Shown here: piece after piece, positions 12,221 to 44,254 of the stretch
How positions within the stretch are numbered: the stretch's first letter is position 1
How the letters are laid out: every line of letters starts with the position of its first letter
NCBI GenBank assembly: GCA_001600815.1
Contig: BCKZ01000006.1
Location: 683,048 to 747,047, forward strand
Direction: 5' to 3'
Source of the DNA: Alloascoidea hylecoeti
Taxonomy: Eukaryota
DNA length: 64,000 bases
Notes under the pieces: generated by a model
What the model saw: only the letters and a program-made list of their open reading frames with translations
Database searches by the model: none
What the model was told of the DNA's origin: nothing
Position numbers and translations under genes: made by a program

Positions 12221-13177
12221 TATCATTATTTTATATTATTGTATAATTTTTAATTCCTAATATTGATATTAAAAAAAAAAACTTGTATAACAATAAATAA
12301 ACCTTTAATAATATTTATAAAATATATTATAAAAATCTTAAAATTGTTAAAAGAAAAAAATTATAAAATGATTGATAGTTACGAATAATAAAATAAAAAT
12401 TTTGAAGGTTTCAAAAATCAAATATCAAAAATCAAAGTCAATAAGATTTTAAAAGAAAAGTGAAATGTTAAAAAAATTAAAAAGTAAATAAAATGAATAA
12501 TTGCAAAACGAATGAATGAAAGGAAACAAAATAATACCTACCTATTAAAAGGTAAATGATAATAGCAATTCAATTGCAATTATAGGCTTTATATACAATT
12601 TAGATTTGATTGATAAAAGAAAAAAATATATCATGAGAGTTAAAAACGAATAAAATGGTTGTAATGATTAAATATAGACAATGCTAAAAGGCTAAGTTAA
12701 ATTAAGTTAAAAAGGATATAAAATAAGAAAGCCATATAAACGAATAAATGTAAATCAATGAAGTGAAGTGAAGTAAAGTAAATGATATTTAGAATGAGGT
12801 ATGAATGAGAATGATAAAAAAAATTATAAAAGCAAAGATTCTATTTTGAAAAAAAGAGAAATCAAAATATCAAATGAATAAATCTAAGAGAATAATCAGA
12901 AAGATTATTATTGATGATCATTTTAGATAATAAAGCATGTTGTAATGATTCAATTGCATTTCACATTTGTTATGGAATTCCAGATTCTAATCAATTGCAA
13001 TTTGCAATGTTTTATTAATATTAAATGAATGTTTTTTTTTTTTTTTTTTTTTTGTTATAAAACTAGATTTTTCTTTTCTTTTTGTAATAATTTTTCAATC
13101 TTTAAATGAATAAGAATAGAAAATAAGGTTTTCTTTTGTATGATTGGTTGATTGGTTGGTTAGTTTTTTTTTCTAGG

Positions 13178-13265
13178 TTTTTGAATTTTTGAATTTTTGA
13201 ATTTTTGAATTTTTGAATTTTTGAATTTTTGAATTTTTGAATTTTTGAATTTTTGAGTTTTTGAA
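13178..13265 (+). repeat. (TTTTTGAA)n microsatellite, ~11 copies; further simple repeats (TATAAA)n and (GATTGT)n to ~13365
   Basis: Directly visible. Confidence 0.9.
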
Positions 13266-13401
13266 CTGAATGCATTTTTTTTGTTAATTTTTAATATGAA
13301 GATAAATATAAATATAAATATAAATATAAATTAGTGATTGTGATTGTGATTGTGATTGTGAATGTGAATATATTGTAATGTGTAGTGTTTGTTATATATT
13401 G

Positions 13402-15192
13402 TCATGTAGAAACCTTACTCTTTCCCTTTTTTAAAATATTTCGATTAACGTTAGCGTTGACGTCTTTTCTAATATTTTTATTATTATTAGTATTATTTTT
13501 TTGATCTAAAATTTTTTGATAATTCCATAATTTACTTTTCCAAGATTCTAAATCTTTATGTAAATTACATAATTTTTCAACATCTTTTAATTTTTTAACT
13601 TTTGAAACTTTTTTATTTGGTGATTCAAGACTAAAATATAATGAAGCATATTCAGAATATGTACGACGGAATTTTTCAGCTAATCTAAACATTTCTTGTG
13701 ATGAATGGACAGTTGGGGTTAAAGTTTGTGGAGATATTTTTGAACGATATGATGCAGTATTGTTTAAAGTATCATATTCAGGAGAAGTATTTGAAGAATT
13801 TGAACTTAAGATTGGAGATCTTATTCTTGAAGTTGTTGAAGTATTTGAACTATTTGATGAATCAGAAACAGTTCTTGATTTCTTTGAAGGGTCATTTGCA
13901 ATTTTTGGAGAAGGTTTTGTATTTTTAAATTTTGAAACATTTGAAACAATTGAGGTTGAATTTGAATTTGGATGTAAATTTAAGTGAGATGGAGAATCAT
14001 CATCATCACCAGATTGAACAAATTCCGAACTAAGAATTTTGGGTCTTTTTCTTCGAGGAGAATTAGATTTTGAAATATTATTAAGTATTGATGAAGTTGA
14101 AGTTATAGAATTTGTAGTTGGAGAAGGTCTCTTTTTTGAATTATTTGAATTAATTTTTAAAATGGCACCTCCAACACGAGGTGAGGAAGGCTTAAGAGGC
14201 AATGAAGAGATTGAGTTATTTAGAGGAGTAGTTTCAATATTAAAAGTTGGAGTTCCAGGTACAGATTGAGGTTGTGGTTGAGGAGTAGCATTCCGTCGAA
14301 CTTTTGGATCCAGTAACATTAATCTCCACGGATGATTTTCTTCAATATTTAATCTATCAAAAGCAGATCTAGCATCACTTATTATTTTCAGTCTTTGTTT
14401 TTCATCATAAAATTTCCATTGCCATATTCGGATATCTTTGTAATGATTATCAGATAGGTTGTACAAAGCTTGATATTTATCCTCATCATCCTTGAATAAG
14501 GAGCCGTAATCTTTCAGTATGGCCAGAACCTCGTCGATGTCGCCCTTCGTGCGCTGTGCGACGGTCTGAGCATTGTTCGGCTCCAGGGCCAGCAAATGGA
14601 TGACTCTGTTTGAGATGGAGTAAAGAGACTTGGACGGGGCAGTTGTGAGCGGCAGGGTGCGGGATTTGGGGGTGATGGAGGGGGTGTGCGGTTGCGACTG
14701 GGGGTTCGGGGAGGGGTTTTTGGACGAGCGTTTGGGCAGTTTGGCATGCCTGGAGGGGTCTTTGGCCGACGGCAGGAGAGTGGCTTTCGTCTTCTGCGAG
14801 TTGGATTGGTTCAGTTGGGATAACAGCCTGGAGGTGGCAGGGCCCAATTTGATTTGGGAAATGGACAGTTTCTGGGATAATTTGGCCAGAGTCTCGCAGC
14901 TCTGGGAGGAAACCCCGCCGCGGAACAGGTCCACCCGCGATGGTTCCGGGACTGCGGACAGCGGGAACGACTCGTCGCCGATCCTCAGGGTGTACGTGCC
15001 GTCCGCGACCGTCAGGCGCACCCGCAGACCTTCAGCAGCGCCCACGGCGGGGGGGCCGGCGGGGGGGCCGGCGGGGGGGCCGGTGGGGCCTGAAGGGGCC
15101 AGCACGCGGAACACGGAGGACGGCAGGCGCATCTGGAAGGCTTGCCGTTGGGGGCCGTCGCAGGGCAGCAGAGTCGTGTGGGACGGAATCAT
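13402..15192 (-). CDS. RNA polymerase II elongation factor ELL-like protein
   Basis: Long ORF (first ATG 15192); central RVIHLLALEP...YKDIRIWQWKFYD region and C-terminal occludin/ELL-like helices (AEKFRRTYSEYASLY...LHKDLESWKSKL). Confidence 0.65.
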   Translation of the reverse strand: MIPSHTTLLPCDGPQRQAFQMRLPSSVFRVLAPSGPTGPPAGPPAGPPAVGAAEGLRVRLTVADGTYTLRIGDESFPLSAVPEPSRVDLFRGGVSSQSCETLAKLSQKLSISQIKLGPATSRLLSQLNQSNSQKTKATLLPSAKDPSRHAKLPKRSSKNPSPNPQSQPHTPSITPKSRTLPLTTAPSKSLYSISNRVIHLLALEPNNAQTVAQRTKGDIDEVLAILKDYGSLFKDDEDKYQALYNLSDNHYKDIRIWQWKFYDEKQRLKIISDARSAFDRLNIEENHPWRLMLLDPKVRRNATPQPQPQSVPGTPTFNIETTPLNNSISSLPLKPSSPRVGGAILKINSNNSKKRPSPTTNSITSTSSILNNISKSNSPRRKRPKILSSEFVQSGDDDDSPSHLNLHPNSNSTSIVSNVSKFKNTKPSPKIANDPSKKSRTVSDSSNSSNTSTTSRIRSPILSSNSSNTSPEYDTLNNTASYRSKISPQTLTPTVHSSQEMFRLAEKFRRTYSEYASLYFSLESPNKKVSKVKKLKDVEKLCNLHKDLESWKSKLWNYQKILDQKNNTNNNKNIRKDVNANVNRNILKKGKSKVST

Positions 15193-15294
15193 TCTGCTCT
15201 CTGGTTTTGGGGAAGAAGTTCGTACTGCCAAAGATGGGAGGGAACCGGGAATGGGTGCGTCACGTGTTCGCTATACTACTGCTAACTAACTAAA

Positions 15295-17199
15295 CTAATC
15301 CGACAGAATCGTAACCAACGTCTTCCATCCGGGCGTCTCAAACAACTCCTGGGCCTCCTCTTCGTTCTGGCCGGCCGCAACCGAATACGCCAGCTGCTCT
15401 TCTTCTGCCTTCAGGATCCCCAACGAGTGGAGGTACGTTAGCAGGTGGAAGTCTGAAAGCCGTGTTAATATCTCGGGTAAACTGTCCACTTTAAAGTGTT
15501 TCGCTATTGAGGAAATATCCTGTGATGATCCTATTGCCTGGCGGTTTTCAATAACAAACGGCTTGGAGATGTTTTTGAAAAGTGGTGTGGGTTCCGATGG
15601 GAATCCATGTGTCAAAGTGACTAAAAAATATTCAACTGGGAACGAGCCTTCTGCACTTTTCTTAACCGTTATTCCATATTCATTAACCCTTGTGTAGAAA
15701 ATATCCGGCACATATCTTGTTTTGCAAGCTTTTTGAATCATAACCATTGATGCATGTGTTGAAGGTACAACTAAATCTGCTTTAACCATAGCTTCAGCTT
15801 CTGTTGACACTTGATAAGATGCAATATCAATTTCTCCCTTGATATTCCCACTTACAACACAAGTAACGAATTTTGAACTAAATCTATTATTATCTGACCA
15901 TTTAGAAACATTTGGATGTTGACATTGTAATTTCGCCGCAAAAATTGCTTCAATTGATGTTAAAAAATATGAATCTTTATGTCTTTTACAAATAACACTT
16001 CCATCTCCTTTACCTGAATCAATTAAATCTGTAAAAATTATTCCAATTTTTCTTAATCCAAATTTTTTACCAATTTCATCAACTTTATTAATTTCTTCTT
16101 CATTTTCTTTTTCTAAATTAAGTGTTAATCCATCACTTTCTCCATTTTGTGCTGGTTCATAAATTACTTCAACAACTGCTTTTATACCTAAAGGAACTTC
16201 TTCATATGATTCATACCTACCATATAAATATCCTAATCTTTGATATCCTGTACTTCTCCATGAATCCAAAAAATTATTAACAAGTGAAGAATCTGCAAAT
16301 TCAACATGATCAACCATTCGAAATTCTTGTCTTTGTAATGTAATTGCTGAAGGTTGACATTTTGAACAAATTCCATTTGGCCATGATTTATGACCACTTG
16401 GACAATTCTTTTTAACTTTAAAATTTGGTTCTGATAATGGATTAACATATGATGATGCTGCATTTTTATTTGTTGAATCATTAATATGTTTAACATGTGA
16501 ATGAAATGATAAATGTTTAATTTTATGATTTTTTTGATATTCTGCATCCCATGGTGCAACTGGTAATGAAAATTCACTTTGACTTTGTCCATATTGCTTT
16601 TCTCGTTTCATATATCCATCTTTTGAATCTAATAAATCATCAATAGGTAATTGTTTTTCATTATCATTGACATTTGAGTTGGTATTAGGATTTTTTTTTG
16701 AACTAGAATTAGAATTAGAATTAGAATTGGATTGTGATATAGATGTAGATGAAGATGGAGTTGAAATTGATTCATAAGTTAAAAATAATAAATCACCATG
16801 TCTATTAAGTTAGTGTTAATTTGTAGGTATTTTTATTATCATATTATCATGTTTAAAACATACTTTAATTGTAATTCACTAATGTTATGACCTACAAATT
16901 TAGATGCTTCTTCACCCTCATCACCAGGTTTTGCTCCAATCTTTAACGTATTAAAATTCACATTTTTCAAATGATTTGATAACTAATTCAATCATGTCAT
17001 TAAAATGTTAGAATTTAATTATCTTTAATACTCAATAACCAAATACTTACTTGTTCTAAAACTTTTGAAAAATCATCATTTGGACCTACTTGTGCCCTAA
17101 ACATTCCATCTTTTGATCTAAATCGAAGAATCTTATTGATTTATTAATATAAATTTATCATAATTTCATAATTTTAAAAAAACTTACTATTCCTCCCAT
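15295..17199 (-). CDS. NPL4: Cdc48 cofactor Npl4; introns 17187-17132, 17050-16983, 16863-16802
   Basis: MGGI|ILRFRSKDGMFR, CPSGHKSWPNGICSKCQPSAITLQRQEFRMVDHVEF, FSSKFVTCVVSG, FPVEYFLVTLTHGFP. Confidence 0.93.
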
Positions 17200-26998: not shown

Positions 26999-28027
26999 TT
27001 AATTATATAACTCCATATCGAGTTGTTGATACCGGCTCCTGTTATTTCTAAAGATTCTTGAAGAAAATTTCCTAACAATCTTTTTATAGAATATGTATTC
27101 TAACATAAAAATAGTAAGAACCAATAACGTTATTAAGATAGTAAATACTATCCAATGTCTTCCCATTAATTTAATCGTCGAAGCATCACCTTTATGCCAT
27201 GATGAACCCTGAGTAACAGTGAAGAAAGGATTTGACTTTATATATGATGGATCTGAAGGATCAGTACCAACGTCATTACCTAAATAATATGGTGGCATTA
27301 TAACTGTAATTTGATAATCATCGGGTATAATGTTTCGTTTATATTTCAGCCAAATTACCGATAAAAATAAAGGACCTGTCCCATACATTGTTGTAAGATA
27401 AGGAATCAACCAATTTCTATTATAACTTTTTAATTTAGTCAATACTTGTAACAAAAAAGGATGTTTCGGAACAAATCCCATAACATTGTTACCGATTCCT
27501 GTTGGTTTTGATTTTCGAACCCAAGCACTTGTGGTTAAAAGAGGATCTAATCTTCTCGCACACCCATTATCTAGATCGACATAAACACCNCCATAATGAC
27601 TNAATACAAAGTACCTAATAGCGTCGGCTCTCATGACAACGTATGGATAAGAATCATAGGTTGGAACGAACCATGGGTAATTTTCTTGTAAGAACTCTCT
27701 GGATGTCTNTGTTGACCACAAAATATATTCATAATCTGGATGAAGTTCAATACATGATTGCTGTTGAGGAAGCCATATTTCAGGGATGGTTGAATTATTT
27801 TCAGATAACCAGACTTGATGTATAATCTTGGGGATTTTATATTCAGTATTTGAAAAGCTATCAGCTATTGAAGTGTCTATGTGATTGTCTTTGTTTGTGT
27901 TTTCTGTGTAAGTATATTTGTCGAGGTTTTCGGGAACCAACAGCAATATAAGTTCAAACACTTCATATAGAGCATATAGCAAAAATATAACGTGTAATCC
28001 TATTATGATGGCAAGGTCTTTCCTCAT
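26999..28027 (-). CDS. Mannosyl-inositolphosphorylceramide synthase, GT32 (Sur1/Csh1-like), copy A
   Basis: N-terminal TM, IPKIIHQ, RADAIRYF, GVYVDLD (DxD), TGPLFLS, QGSSWH, C-terminal TM. Confidence 0.9.
   Translation of the reverse strand: MRKDLAIIIGLHVIFLLYALYEVFELILLLVPENLDKYTYTENTNKDNHIDTSIADSFSNTEYKIPKIIHQVWLSENNSTIPEIWLPQQQSCIELHPDYEYILWSTXTSREFLQENYPWFVPTYDSYPYVVMRADAIRYFVXSHYXGVYVDLDNGCARRLDPLLTTSAWVRKSKPTGIGNNVMGFVPKHPFLLQVLTKLKSYNRNWLIPYLTTMYGTGPLFLSVIWLKYKRNIIPDDYQITVIMPPYYLGNDVGTDPSDPSYIKSNPFFTVTQGSSWHKGDASTIKLMGRHWIVFTILITLLVLTIFMLEYIFYKKIVRKFSSRIFRNNRSRYQQLDMELYN
27453..27849 (-). repeat. 397-bp inverted repeat, left arm
   Basis: Reverse complement of 30003-30399, including N at 27590, 27602, 27709. 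Confidence 0.9.
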
Positions 28028-29285
28028 TGATGGAAGTGTGAAAATAAAGATGAAGGGAGAGAGAAAAGAAACACGATTTTTTAAAGGAGAATGAGGAAAG
28101 GCTAAAAGGAAAAAATAACCGTATGCGTTTTATTTTATTGGAGTTGTAATCAAAAAATTGTAATTGTAATCCACAAATTTGATCCGTTCACGAACCGAAT
28201 ACGTATCCGAATTCGCGCTTAGCATGCGTGTGTTTTCCAAACAAAGTTTGATTTACGAGATGAAATCTTAAGTTTACGGAATATTTGAGCACGAACGTGT
28301 ACCGAAATTCGCCACCGTATCCAGCGCTACCCACACAAACATCAACCAAGATGGATTTATGGGACAATATAACTTCTATCATTCTTATACATCAATTTAA
28401 TTACCTGAGAATCGCATGCGAGGTACGAGTCCTTTAAGCGTATAAAATTTTCACAACCAAATGAACAATCTTACTTACACTATAGCTAAATTGAACAATT
28501 TTTTTCTCGCCAAATATTGGTTGGCAAAATATCCATGCTATTATGCATACTTACAGATAAGGAAATATAAGTACATACATATGCATGCCTTCAGACGGCT
28601 TCTTTGTTAATTTGCACATTACGCACCTAATTGTATGCAAGCGTGACCCCATTTTTCTTGAATATTTGTTCGGTCGCGAAATCTGGAGGCCATTTATGTC
28701 TTTAATATATAGTAGAAGTGATTTTGGTGGTGTGGTTAGATTTTCGAGGTTTGTCGATATTCCTAAAAGTTCATTTTAAGTGTCCCAACCATAGTTATTA
28801 TGCAAAGATTTGACCAACCAAACGCAACGCTAACCAATTCAGAAACCATTTTCGACCATATCGCGGCATGAGTAAGAATAGGATCAATAGGATGGCAGTA
28901 CACTAAACTATATTTATTTAATATTAATATTATATAGTTAGTGGTTCCCCCAATTTCAGCGGGATGTGGCAAAAGAGTGGCCCCACTTTCGAGGTTCAAT
29001 ATACAGAGGCAACAAATGCAATTGTTTTGTTTTTCTAGATCTTAATTATAACTTCTGTCGACACACAGACCGAAGCAATATAAAATGTTAACTAATCGTC
29101 GACTCTTTCCAAGAAACAAGCTTTAACAGTAGTAACGTTAACACCTGAAGAAATAAAATAAAAACATCATTGTAGAGAGATTTAGAACAGACAATGAAAA
29201 GATGATTCGGATTCACGCCATAATACTATTTATAATTATAGTTTCAGAAATATTGTTTAATAGAATTTATCTTCTTATTTAGAAA

Positions 29286-29323
29286 TCGGCTGATTGATTT
29301 CTCGGCTGATTGATTTCTCGGCT
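29286..29323 (+). repeat. 16-bp tandem repeat TCGGCTGATTGATTTC x2.4 in the shared promoter region
   Basis: Directly visible. Confidence 0.8.
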
Positions 29324-29833
29324 TCTAGAAAAAAAAGGGTATCTAAATATACTCTTGTTATCTGGAGAAATGCCCATCAAAGCGTATATCTATAAGTGCA
29401 AATCTTGGAAGAAGATTTTTGTAACCCTTTTGGGTGGGATTGTGCATTAGTCTGTTTCATCACTTTGCTTAGGCACAATTATCGAGGCTACTGTGGATGC
29501 ACGTGAGTGTGCGTAATTATTTCACAGCCCATTAATGGCAGATAAGACTGCATATTCATAGATAGTGTACTAGACTGTTATACCAAATCCTGCAATTGTG
29601 TAGTTATGTCATAATATGTATTATATAAATGTCCATTCTTTGTAAGCTTATAGTTTCCCGGGTTGGCATCTGTTTATCAGACTAACAATATATCAGATTT
29701 GCATACAGTTACTTCTCATGCAAGACTTATTTATAAATAATAAATATGCCTCCCTTCTCCTATGTGATGTTCAATACTTCACCATCCTTCTGATTCTCTC
29801 TCAATCCGTTATAAATATACAATTGATAACAAT

Positions 29834-30832
29834 ATGAGAAAAGATCTTGCCATTATAATATCATTTCATGTCTTTTTTCTAATTTATGCCCTCTATGAAG
29901 TATTCGATCTAATGCTGCTACTTCTCCCCGAAAATATCAATGAAGATATTTTTCAGGAACCAACTGTTGATGCTCACAAAACTATAACACATGAGTTCTC
30001 AGATACTGAATATAAAATCCCCAAGATTATACATCAAGTCTGGTTATCTGAAAATAATTCAACCATCCCTGAAATATGGCTTCCTCAACAGCAATCATGT
30101 ATTGAACTTCATCCAGATTATGAATATATTTTGTGGTCAACANAGACATCCAGAGAGTTCTTACAAGAAAATTACCCATGGTTCGTTCCAACCTATGATT
30201 CTTATCCATACGTTGTCATGAGAGCCGACGCTATTAGGTACTTTGTATTNAGTCATTATGGNGGTGTTTATGTCGATCTAGATAATGGGTGTGCGAGAAG
30301 ATTAGATCCTCTTTTAACCACAAGTGCTTGGGTTCGAAAATCAAAACCAACAGGAATCGGTAACAATGTTATGGGATTTGTTCCGAAACATCCTTTTTTA
30401 TTAAAGGTTTTATCAAAAATCAAAAAATACAATAGGAATTGGTTTATTCCTTATCTTACAACAATGTATGGGACAGGTCCTTTATTTTTATCAGTAATTT
30501 GGCGAACTTATAAAAGTCAATTGCTTCCAAAAGATTATAGAATCAGTATTATATTACCGCCATATTATCTAGGTGTTGAGAATGATACATCATCAAATCC
30601 TTTTTTCACTGTAACTCAAGGATCATCATGGCATAAAGGTGATGCTTCAACAATTATACTAATGGGCAGACATTGGATAATATTTACAATCTTAATAACG
30701 TTATTGGTTCTCACTGTTTTTGTATTTGAATATTTGTTCTATAAGAAGTTATTAAGATCACTAAGAGCTTATAATATTAGAAGAAGAGACAGATGGCCAA
30801 CTGAATCAAAATTGTTTAAAATTGATTTTTAA
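29834..30832 (+). CDS. Mannosyl-inositolphosphorylceramide synthase, GT32 (Sur1/Csh1-like), copy B
   Basis: Same motifs as copy A; both start MRKDLAIII. Confidence 0.9.
   Translation: MRKDLAIIISFHVFFLIYALYEVFDLMLLLLPENINEDIFQEPTVDAHKTITHEFSDTEYKIPKIIHQVWLSENNSTIPEIWLPQQQSCIELHPDYEYILWSTXTSREFLQENYPWFVPTYDSYPYVVMRADAIRYFVXSHYXGVYVDLDNGCARRLDPLLTTSAWVRKSKPTGIGNNVMGFVPKHPFLLKVLSKIKKYNRNWFIPYLTTMYGTGPLFLSVIWRTYKSQLLPKDYRISIILPPYYLGVENDTSSNPFFTVTQGSSWHKGDASTIILMGRHWIIFTILITLLVLTVFVFEYLFYKKLLRSLRAYNIRRRDRWPTESKLFKIDF
30003..30399 (+). repeat. 397-bp inverted repeat, right arm
   Basis: Reverse complement of 27453-27849, N at 30143, 30250, 30262. Confidence 0.9.
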
Positions 30833-42029: not shown

Positions 42030-42199
42030 TACATTATAAAATACAATGTTAATTATATATTATTATTTATTTACTATACATCAACCCTAAATATCCTTTT
42101 ATATCCACTTCCCTCTTGGCCATAATGATAATTTTACATATATGCCTATATAATCCTCTTATTTAAATCGTTCTTATATCCAATTTAAAAAAACTTGTG

Positions 42200-42600
42200 A
42201 GGAATGGTCGCTTACCTATAGACAAGAAGAGTTGTATAGGGTGAAGTACCAGAAAATTATCTCGAAATTTCATACCCGTAAAACTTCTTAAAATACCCAA
42301 CTCCGTAACAAAATAGCGTATAGCAAAACCAAAAATATGCCCATTGAGAAAGGCTCAAAACTTAGAAGACGCGATTGCTATGTAATTTTCCTACGACGAG
42401 GAGAGTAAAGACTACAGCTTTCATTTTGTAACGACTCAATTTACTGTCAGACCGTAATTCCCAGTTATCACGCATCATGTAGGTGGCTATCTCAAGTGGA
42501 ATAAGAATTTTCCGTTATCACTTGTTGAAACGGTTACAATATTAATTTTTGTGGATACGCAATGATTTTCTTTAAATTTAAAAACATGAGTAGAATCGTA
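42200..42600 (+). pseudogene. Degenerate dispersed-repeat relic (LRNKIA copy)
   Basis: ctccgtaacaaaatagcg at 42301; tacccgtaaa block shared with 20571; acctat..ttgtatagg shared with ~2395. Confidence 0.4.
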
Positions 42601-44254
42601 CAGCTCTTGCTGAGATAATTGATTGCTGGTAAATAATATCATTTCGTATCCACAAATATTACTGTTGTCGTGAAGAAATATTGTTATTTTTGACAATAAC
42701 AACAATATGATTGTCATCAATTCTCGTAGCATTAAGTAAATATATCGTTTAGTGTTATATATTAATATGAACTAATCACAAGACATCGAAGGCAGTCACT
42801 CTCCAGAAAATATATTTAAGAAAATGTAGATCACTCAATAACTTGTTATGTCCTTTTAACTCGGATATACAAAGGTTGGGGGTCAGGTGGAAAAGTCGAT
42901 CAAATAAGTCTAGTCCCAAAATACATTATTGTTGGTCTTTTCCAGCAAAATTAGTAATTGTCTTATTAAAAGAATGATACTATTCAACTCTATACAGCTT
43001 CTTTCCGGTAACTTTCTACTTTTGTTTCGCCAGTAGTACGTCATGATCACAATTCTTCTTTCACATGTTTGTGCTTCTGCAACATATCATACGTTCATCG
43101 ATATCGATATCTTAAAAAAGGGATTTCTCGCAAGTCTTTTAACTCTATTTAAAATTGGATATACGAAATATTGAGATGAGAGAATTATAATATATATAAG
43201 GCCTTCATATATGTAGAATTACCATGATTGCCCAGAGGGAAGTGGTGAAAAAAGGGTGTAGAGGTATATAACTTATAGAGTTGATTTCAAATTTTTATAA
43301 ACGTTAACTAATTTCGGATTATGTTATGTTTATTACTGATTAGAGTCTTATAGGGGTGATACCCCTATCAATATTGATTGTTATTATATTGCTATAATAT
43401 AAATAATTATAAGGCGAAATTTTACATAAACTTAAGCTTACCGGTAACTTTTCATTGCCATGAACGATAATATATTAGAAATTTAATTTAGGATTATAAC
43501 AATTTAATTAATATCAATATTGATTATATGCCATTTAAATTGTGGTGTATATACAATTTCAATGTTTTACATATAATTAAGGCTTTTTAGGTTTAAGCTT
43601 AACTTCCAATAGAGTTATATACTTGCTTAACATTACTTGGATATTCTGCAGTGTATTAAAACAGAGTAAAGTTAATTATAATTGCATGTGATCCGATAAG
43701 CTGCCAATTGCATATAATATGCATTGAAACAACTTTTTTAAACAGACCTCGAGAGTTCGTGAATTTAAGCTTATCTTTATAATTACGATTATATAAAATA
43801 GTAATTATAATTATAATGATTTCTTTCTTTCTATATAACATGTTATATCCATATCATAACACCTAAGTGTAATTCAAAAATAAAAAAGGAGCTCGAGTAA
43901 CAAAACATGAAAATTCGAAATGAAAAATGAAAAATAGAATACTAAATGATCACCAATTATTAATATATAAAATTGTAAAAAAACCGTTCCAAAAGAAATT
44001 ATGCCGCTGACCAATCTGGAACATTAGTTAACAAAATTGGATATAGTAAAATAGAATCTTTTAAATTTTGATACATGCAGATAATTGATATTAATATTTG
44101 AAATTCATATATGTATATCTTGATTAATTATTATTATTATTATAACTTTATAATTCGAAAGTATAACATCATCTTTTTATTTTAAAATCCCAATGTGTAC
44201 AATATAGTATCATTATATTTGAAGTTCGCCTTACAATTAGGAATCTAAATGTAG

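Follow-up and report, generated by a model that had tools for sequence, protein, structure and literature searches.

Two inverted-repeat systems of budding yeasts are the closest described relatives of the locus treated here. In the FF region of Saccharomyces, the accessible parts of Salzberg et al. 2022 (PMC9731477) describe 4.2-kb repeats that are homogenized by gene conversion with inversion as a by-product, and they report no flip in ~53,800 mitoses and 950 meioses. At the mating-type (MAT) locus of Hansenula (Ogataea) polymorpha, the available text of Maekawa and Kaneko 2014 (PMC4238957) describes 2,049-bp identical repeats, both orientations of the locus, and a starvation-induced inversion that alters which MAT genes are expressed; it also notes that PCR over such repeats may give ambiguous results. 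Here we analyze a head-to-head pair of Sur1/Csh1-like genes of glycosyltransferase family 32 (GT32), gene 1 and gene 2, which share an internal 397-bp inverted repeat and lie in a 64,000-nucleotide stretch of the Alloascoidea hylecoeti draft genome (contig BCKZ01000006.1). This whole stretch is called the window, and positions are counted from its first letter. A sequence-only reading had proposed that the repeat makes the pair a switchable flip/flop cassette, with ongoing gene conversion as a simpler explanation. We find that the feature is real and probably of a known kind, namely partial concerted evolution of inverted paralogs.

Identity and divergence along the gene pair

The two arms of the repeat are reverse complements at 394/394 called bases, with the first mismatches at 27452 and 27850, so that the earlier description of the cores as exact reverse complements stands for these bases. 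The word "perfect" applies to the called bases and cannot be stated for the full length, since three positions are uncalled. These positions form mirrored N pairs (27590/30262, 27602/30250, and 27709/30143), each of which sums to 57852 as had been reported, and the six Ns are the only single Ns in the window. In gene 1 they occupy position 1 of codon 107 and position 3 of codons 142 and 146. The tract opens shortly ahead of the first strand in the catalytic domain and takes in the DxD motif, as judged from an alignment and a structure model whose mean predicted local distance difference test score (pLDDT) was 59.9 and which was used solely for rough placing of the tract. The homogenized share of the open reading frame (ORF) is 39%, and the remainder is near saturation.

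Outside the core the two genes are diverged, indels included, and gene 2 is 77-78% identical to gene 1. Alignment thereby bears out what the sequence-only reading had said of the 5' and 3' parts, and it adds three identical patches of 47, 26, and 23 nt that had been missed, all of them downstream of the core. Between the core and the 47-nt patch lie 46 nt with 14 mismatches.

Synonymous sites follow the same division. Among the 80.7 synonymous sites of the core 0 differ, while the proportion of synonymous differences (pS) is 0.51 in the well-aligned flanks (synonymous substitutions per site, dS, ~0.85), 0.77 in the N-terminal anchor, and 0.92 in codons 192-207, which directly adjoin the identical 47-nt patch. 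Along the coding region, regional pS steps through 0, 0.37, 0.50, 0.77, and 0.92. Purifying selection on the catalytic core alone might be proposed as the cause of the identity, the core being the best conserved part of the family. Protein constraint fails to explain it, however, because the synonymous sites are identical too. At most 2 of the 123 degenerate core codons are able to differ, compared with 33% of 105 same-residue codons that do differ in the flanks, and at the flank rate no more than 2 differing codons in 123 would turn up with P = 4e-19, so that chance fails as well. Histone paralogs in this genome, moreover, are only 80-88% identical in DNA. Unless the core is an assembly collapse, we therefore give purifying selection practically no credence as the sole explanation.

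Recurrent gene conversion is recognized by an old duplication in which the tracts differ in age. What is seen here is a near-identical tract, synonymous sites included, within diverged paralogs, together with a patchwork of tracts. Because the flanks are old, the core lacks synonymous differences, and further identical patches occur, we think it likely that the pair is an old inverted duplication with recurrent ectopic gene conversion, in other words a case of partial concerted evolution. The contrast between a core pS of 0 and a flank pS of 0.51 thus favors the simpler of the two explanations that had been put forward. Under conversion, breaks in one copy would be repaired from the neighboring copy 2.2 kb away, and the most recent conversion tract would have taken in the catalytic domain's first half. 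The N-terminal anchor, the stem, the C-terminal part, and the promoters would escape conversion, either because they are too diverged or because selection keeps them different. Inversion of the inner 2,153 bp would be a rare, unregulated by-product of conversion recombination and not the purpose of the locus. The pair would then be a clean example of partial concerted evolution in which a domain-sized tract is homogenized within old paralogs.

The mirrored Ns and the sequencing runs

The meaning of the mirrored Ns was sought in the rest of the genome. A 644-kb sample that includes the window contains 11 single Ns: the 6 in the repeat arms, 2 in a direct pair on C3, and 3 in an ORF that, from its translation, appears retroelement-like. 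The C3 direct repeat is 99% identical and has matched Ns at 1160155 and 1162585, an offset of 2,430. Since a direct repeat with matched Ns cannot invert, matched Ns are the assembly's mark of unresolved close repeats. Collapsed repeats are also named as a cause of ambiguous bases in the accessible text of PMC4237348. As a separate observation, C3 1129700-1204000 holds four close direct paralog pairs in 75 kb, with identical runs of 142-302 nt and 89-99% identity.

Close inverted pairs of at least 98% identity found in a screen of paralog families carry matched Ns in 3/3 cases; for the ADH_N family, 30/43 matches were retrieved. A convergent inverted ADH pair (C17 430388-438434; 351 and 400 amino acids) has an 890-nt identical run, 3 mirrored Ns, and unique N-termini outside the tract, and the longer protein has an N-terminal extension that may be a mitochondrial leader, which it resembles. 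Nested in this pair are head-to-head identical genes for 63-amino-acid metallothionein-like proteins, in a 653-nt, 98% inverted repeat with 1 mirrored N, and the same interval holds a 183-nt foldback. The third case (C1 1224016-1231729) is a head-to-head whole-gene duplicate of a 374-amino-acid ADH_N-domain oxidoreductase, 1,290 nt at 99.8% with 2 mirrored Ns, which encloses two other ORFs and a perfect 32-nt inverted repeat. Like the GT32 pair, the C17 and C1 pairs are close inverted copies with mirrored Ns in tracts of 98-99.8% identity, and the ADH pair shares the unique N-termini as well. They differ in that their tracts of 650-1,290 nt take up most or all of the gene, compared with only 39% of the ORF in the GT32 pair.

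In a tandem oxidoreductase pair at C14 482000-485500, one copy of which is frameshifted as assembled, single Ns are densely clustered at the place of divergence between the copies. No single N was found in the paralog controls, which comprised TEF1, histones, HSP70 (10 loci), and sugar transporters (9 scored of 128 candidates); the unlinked TEF1 copies are 97% identical with a 156-nt identical run. Neighboring paralogs at 89-92% identity in the 644-kb sample are likewise free of single Ns, with identical runs of 302, 152, and 142 nt. The distribution of such runs suggests that local gene conversion may be common in this genome. Judged by the control pairs, the three mirrored Ns most likely hide ~3 differences between the copies, for a true identity of ~99.2%. 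In this assembly, mirrored Ns are a sign that repeat copies went unresolved and are not to be taken as biology.

Four DNA runs (X1-X4), from at most three samples, were compared with the assembly as assembled contigs over 27603-30249. A single 2,213-nt contig with 0 differing letters covers the inner segment in 4/4 runs; it spans 27820-30032, the 2,153 nt extended by 30 nt on either side, in line with the enclosed 2,153 bp that had been described earlier. X1, X2, and X3 each carry the core as one 490-nt contig, and X4 has a 235-nt piece of it; the 247 nt of core compared (235 in X4) showed 0 other letters. On its coordinates the 490-nt contig would extend between 27360 and 27849 in X2, or from 30003 to 30492 in X1 and X3; 27360 and 30492 are exactly where the 47-nt patch ends. 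The ratio of its depth to that of the inner contig is expected to be 1.67 with copies that differ at the three N sites and 1.83 with copies that agree there. The shared core contig and the inner contig have depths of 95.5 and 53.1 in X3 (ratio 1.80), 17.5 and 6.9 in X2 (2.54), and, for the 235-nt piece, 34.8 and 22.9 in X4 (1.52), and all three are consistent with a collapsed two-copy core, unlike X1. In all four runs the inner 2,153 bp form one contig that stops at the repeat, and the core has collapsed into one contig, so the near-identity of the two cores is supported as real, as carried by the run contigs at the inner boundaries and over 247 nt of core.

Conversion weighed against collapse, inversion, and switching

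Several points weigh against conversion as we read it. All four runs are flagged as a possible source of the assembly. Their contigs (Logan) merge small bubbles and drop variants, including the 46-nt diverged stretch, and the letters at the N sites are absent from the run comparison, so that "differences between copies" rests on the control pairs. The depths in X1 are 11.3 and 10.7, a ratio of 1.06 that is under expectation, among other X1 contigs at 7.1-13.6. No sister species carrying the pair was found, the next protein match being at 50%, and conversion is to that extent unconfirmed on the species tree. A metagenome scan gave no close relative among the 80 loci listed of 288 (best segments 27-54%), a search for gene-2 fragments returned 6 matches at 47-55% and no full or partial gene 2, and the other genomes searched contained no look-alike. 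P0001, from a 9.9-kb contig of another record, is the gene 1 protein with K, L, and G at the three X positions; the assembled join of gene-1 N-terminus to gene-1 C-terminus that it keeps counts in favor of our reading, but the record is possibly of the same strain. Finally, according to the available text of PMC6334234, inversion accounted for ~50% of the recombinants selected with one inverted-repeat reporter in yeast, which favors occasional inversion and means that inversions may make up more than a minor share of events. The points on the runs could be read as an assembly collapse, in which a single consensus stands at both arms in place of true cores that differ far more. The mirrored Ns do show that the assembler left the copies unseparated, and the bubble merging and the X1 depth point the same way. 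Yet the inner contig stops exactly 30 nt into each arm in every run, with no other letters in the compared core, and depth ratios are 1.5-2.5 in three of the four. The assembly writes dense Ns where the copies of the C14 tandem pair differ, so more differences in the core should give more Ns, and it resolves unlinked TEF1 copies at 97% without any. Collapse had been named at the outset as one outcome that would undo the proposal; the run contigs give no sign of much more diverged cores in the interval compared, the low depth in X1 notwithstanding, and we consider it very unlikely.

Conversion of an inverted pair also raises the question of inversion. From the geometry, a crossover in the core would leave both ORFs open and in frame and would exchange the promoter and the N-terminal anchor and stem between the C-terminal halves, as the sequence-only reading had argued. 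Identical repeats in S. cerevisiae reportedly reorient at ~1e-6 per division. Conversion might sometimes resolve as inversion, with both isomers segregating among natural strains as an unregulated, recurrent polymorphism that would add to conversion and not replace it. Both ORFs stay in frame after any core crossover, and the pair is old, with much opportunity for inversion. The FF region is described as re-inverting repeatedly by the conversion route, with ~4% of conversions cited as crossovers (PMC9731477, parts accessible), and 350-bp inverted repeats reorient intervening DNA in S. cerevisiae (10.1101/519397, in the text available). On the other side, at 397 bp the repeat has a tenth of the length of the 4.2-kb FF repeats, and the same partial text of 10.1101/519397 gives a ~20-fold cut in rate for four mismatches in 350 bp, where three are likely here. 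No chimeric protein occurs among the best 120 listed of 420 protein matches, and P0001 has the assembled join, which together are weak evidence as they come from only one or two records. We regard such a polymorphism as plausible, though less likely than not. The pair would gain in significance if both orientations exist, since its repeat is placed within the reading frames and inversion would in that case produce new combinations of enzyme and promoter. A regulated flip/flop switch would go further, toggling promoters and N-termini between the two C-terminal halves and varying the sphingolipid or surface state in the manner of methylotroph MAT loci. The geometry favors it to the extent that the upstream regions are unrelated and the C-terminal halves differ, so that a flip could change expression. 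The lack of a recombinase is not fatal, since the Hansenula MAT switch also has no recognizable one in the available text of PMC4238957. The earlier remark that no recombinase is visible in the window extends to the draft genome, where PF00589 and PF00239 gave 0 matches, with positive controls matching in 14/14 and 12/14 genomes; PF05202 gave 0 matches, but no control matched either. However, the repeat is 397 bp with three uncalled sites versus 2,049 identical bp at Hansenula MAT (PMC4238957, as above), the identity is a patchwork with no dedicated non-coding repeat, and the same anatomy and Ns are found at unrelated housekeeping pairs and at a direct repeat. The assembly shows no gap across either arm. 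Each orientation keeps both genes intact, which leaves no on/off logic. Nothing in these results supports the cassette, and we judge a regulated switch to be highly improbable. It is just as hard to credit that inversion of the 2,153-bp segment is frequent enough to be useful, perhaps in response to stress, giving a clone with four mannosyltransferases from two genes and varied sphingolipid head groups; if true, the locus would be a yeast phase-variation cassette that works without a recombinase and lies outside the mating-type system. In open-access article text, we found neither a fungal in-frame invertible paralog cassette nor an account of conversion between SUR1/CSH1 copies.

Enzyme family, surroundings, and comparison with known systems

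Both divergent ORFs match PF04488 with a score of 73.9 bits, and just two copies of the gene are present in the 24.8-Mb genome (136 scaffolds with N gaps). The gene 1 protein has hydrophobic helices at its N-terminal and C-terminal ends and a DxD motif that reads DLD. The best named matches of the pair, at 42-52%, are Csh1, Sur1, and mannosylinositol phosphorylceramide (MIPC) synthases, that is, inositol phosphorylceramide mannosyltransferases, and a search of solved structures returned only Och1 (9n3s, E 1.4e-9). In a midpoint-rooted tree of 43 proteins, all of them family members, genes 1 and 2 are sisters (100/100) on a stem of 1.21 changes per column and fall on the budding-yeast side of a 100/98 branch, while the canonical budding-yeast proteins form a group with another gene of this genome, on C12. 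Because of this long stem and the placement of the C12 gene, the pair appears on the tree as an extra, fast-changed branch of the Sur1/Csh1 family, with the more canonical copy on C12. The earlier name "MIPC synthase" is borne out as to PF04488, the DxD motif, and the position in the Sur1/Csh1 family; it is a homology label only, applied to a long-branch offshoot of a family whose canonical copy lies elsewhere in the genome. MIPC synthesis by the pair is likely, going by homology to the enzymes described in the accessible text of PMC11594620. Elsewhere in the genome, C4 1101200-1108100 carries a cluster of three OCH1-like GT32 genes arranged around a lipoamide dehydrogenase-like ORF, one of the three being opposite to the rest, with no long near-identical repeat among them.

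The neighbors of the pair in the window are ordinary yeast genes (UTP11, an endonuclease/phosphatase, BOP1/ERB1, and separase). The features of the locus are collected in the table below. The intergenic region gave 0 Rfam matches at E up to 1 and no tRNA, and screening the inner segment for short recombination-site-like repeats gave only two AT-rich palindromes. The dispersed repeat within it has 15 further matches in the genome, at 73-90% over 40-100 nt (on C1, C3, C4, C5, C6, C10, C11, C13, and C29), and no Rfam match; its unit is a few hundred bases, with copies ~70-80% alike and a conserved core. A Helitron-type 5' end was considered for it and ruled out, as other copies extend upstream of that motif. 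This repeat is probably unconnected with the gene pair.

Features of the GT32 locus, with positions in the window
Feature	Position	Strand	Basis or content
Gene 1: Sur1/Csh1-like GT32 glycosyltransferase, 342 amino acids	26999..28027	-	ORF, PF04488 match
Second identical patch, 47 nt, gene 1 side	27360..27406	-	gene 1 codons 208-223
Left arm of the 397-bp repeat	27453..27849	-	gene 1 codons 60-192, first half of catalytic domain
Inner segment, 2,153 bp, single-copy	27850..30002	.	both N-terminal anchor/stem regions and intergenic DNA; part a crossover would invert
Intergenic region, both upstream regions	28028..29833	.	halves unrelated to each other
Decayed copy of a dispersed non-coding repeat family	28488..28782	+	similarity to other genome copies
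Gene 2: paralog of gene 1, 332 amino acids	29834..30832	+	ORF, PF04488 match
Right arm of the 397-bp repeat	30003..30399	+	in gene 2
Mirror copy of the 47-nt patch, gene 2 side	30446..30492	+	sequence comparison

Farther out in the window, G+C content reaches up to 47% at 14001-16000, compared with ~31% elsewhere, in and between the ORF at 13402-15192 and an NPL4-like ORF at 15295-16611. Just downstream of the former ORF is an 8-nt tandem repeat of ~12 copies (13162-13273). A decayed non-coding inverted repeat lies downstream of the separase gene (42086-43264), with arms of ~100 nt (80%) around a smaller one of 39 nt, and is possibly an old transposon remnant.

As enzymes, the two proteins resemble S. 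cerevisiae Sur1 (Csg1) and Csh1 in PF04488, the DxD motif, and two hydrophobic helices, as far as the accessible text of PMC11594620 describes these, and they differ from them in the long stem, a 3-residue insertion, and motif changes. As a repeat, the locus is similar to Hansenula MAT in having inverted repeats around a segment in a budding yeast, in a genome without a serine or tyrosine recombinase (PMC4238957, text in part). Long repeats, both orientations, starvation induction, and a change in MAT expression are features described for the Hansenula locus; the GT32 repeat is 397 bp long, and one orientation is on record. With the FF region of Saccharomyces chromosome XIV the pair shares an inverted repeat of paralogous coding DNA that is homogenized by conversion, with no dedicated recombinase proposed in the parts of PMC9731477 available. 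The FF repeats, by that same account, hold whole genes, flank 24 kb, and have both orientations documented, whereas the 397-bp GT32 repeat lies within two ORFs on either side of 2.15 kb, would make chimeric proteins upon inversion, and has only one orientation on record.

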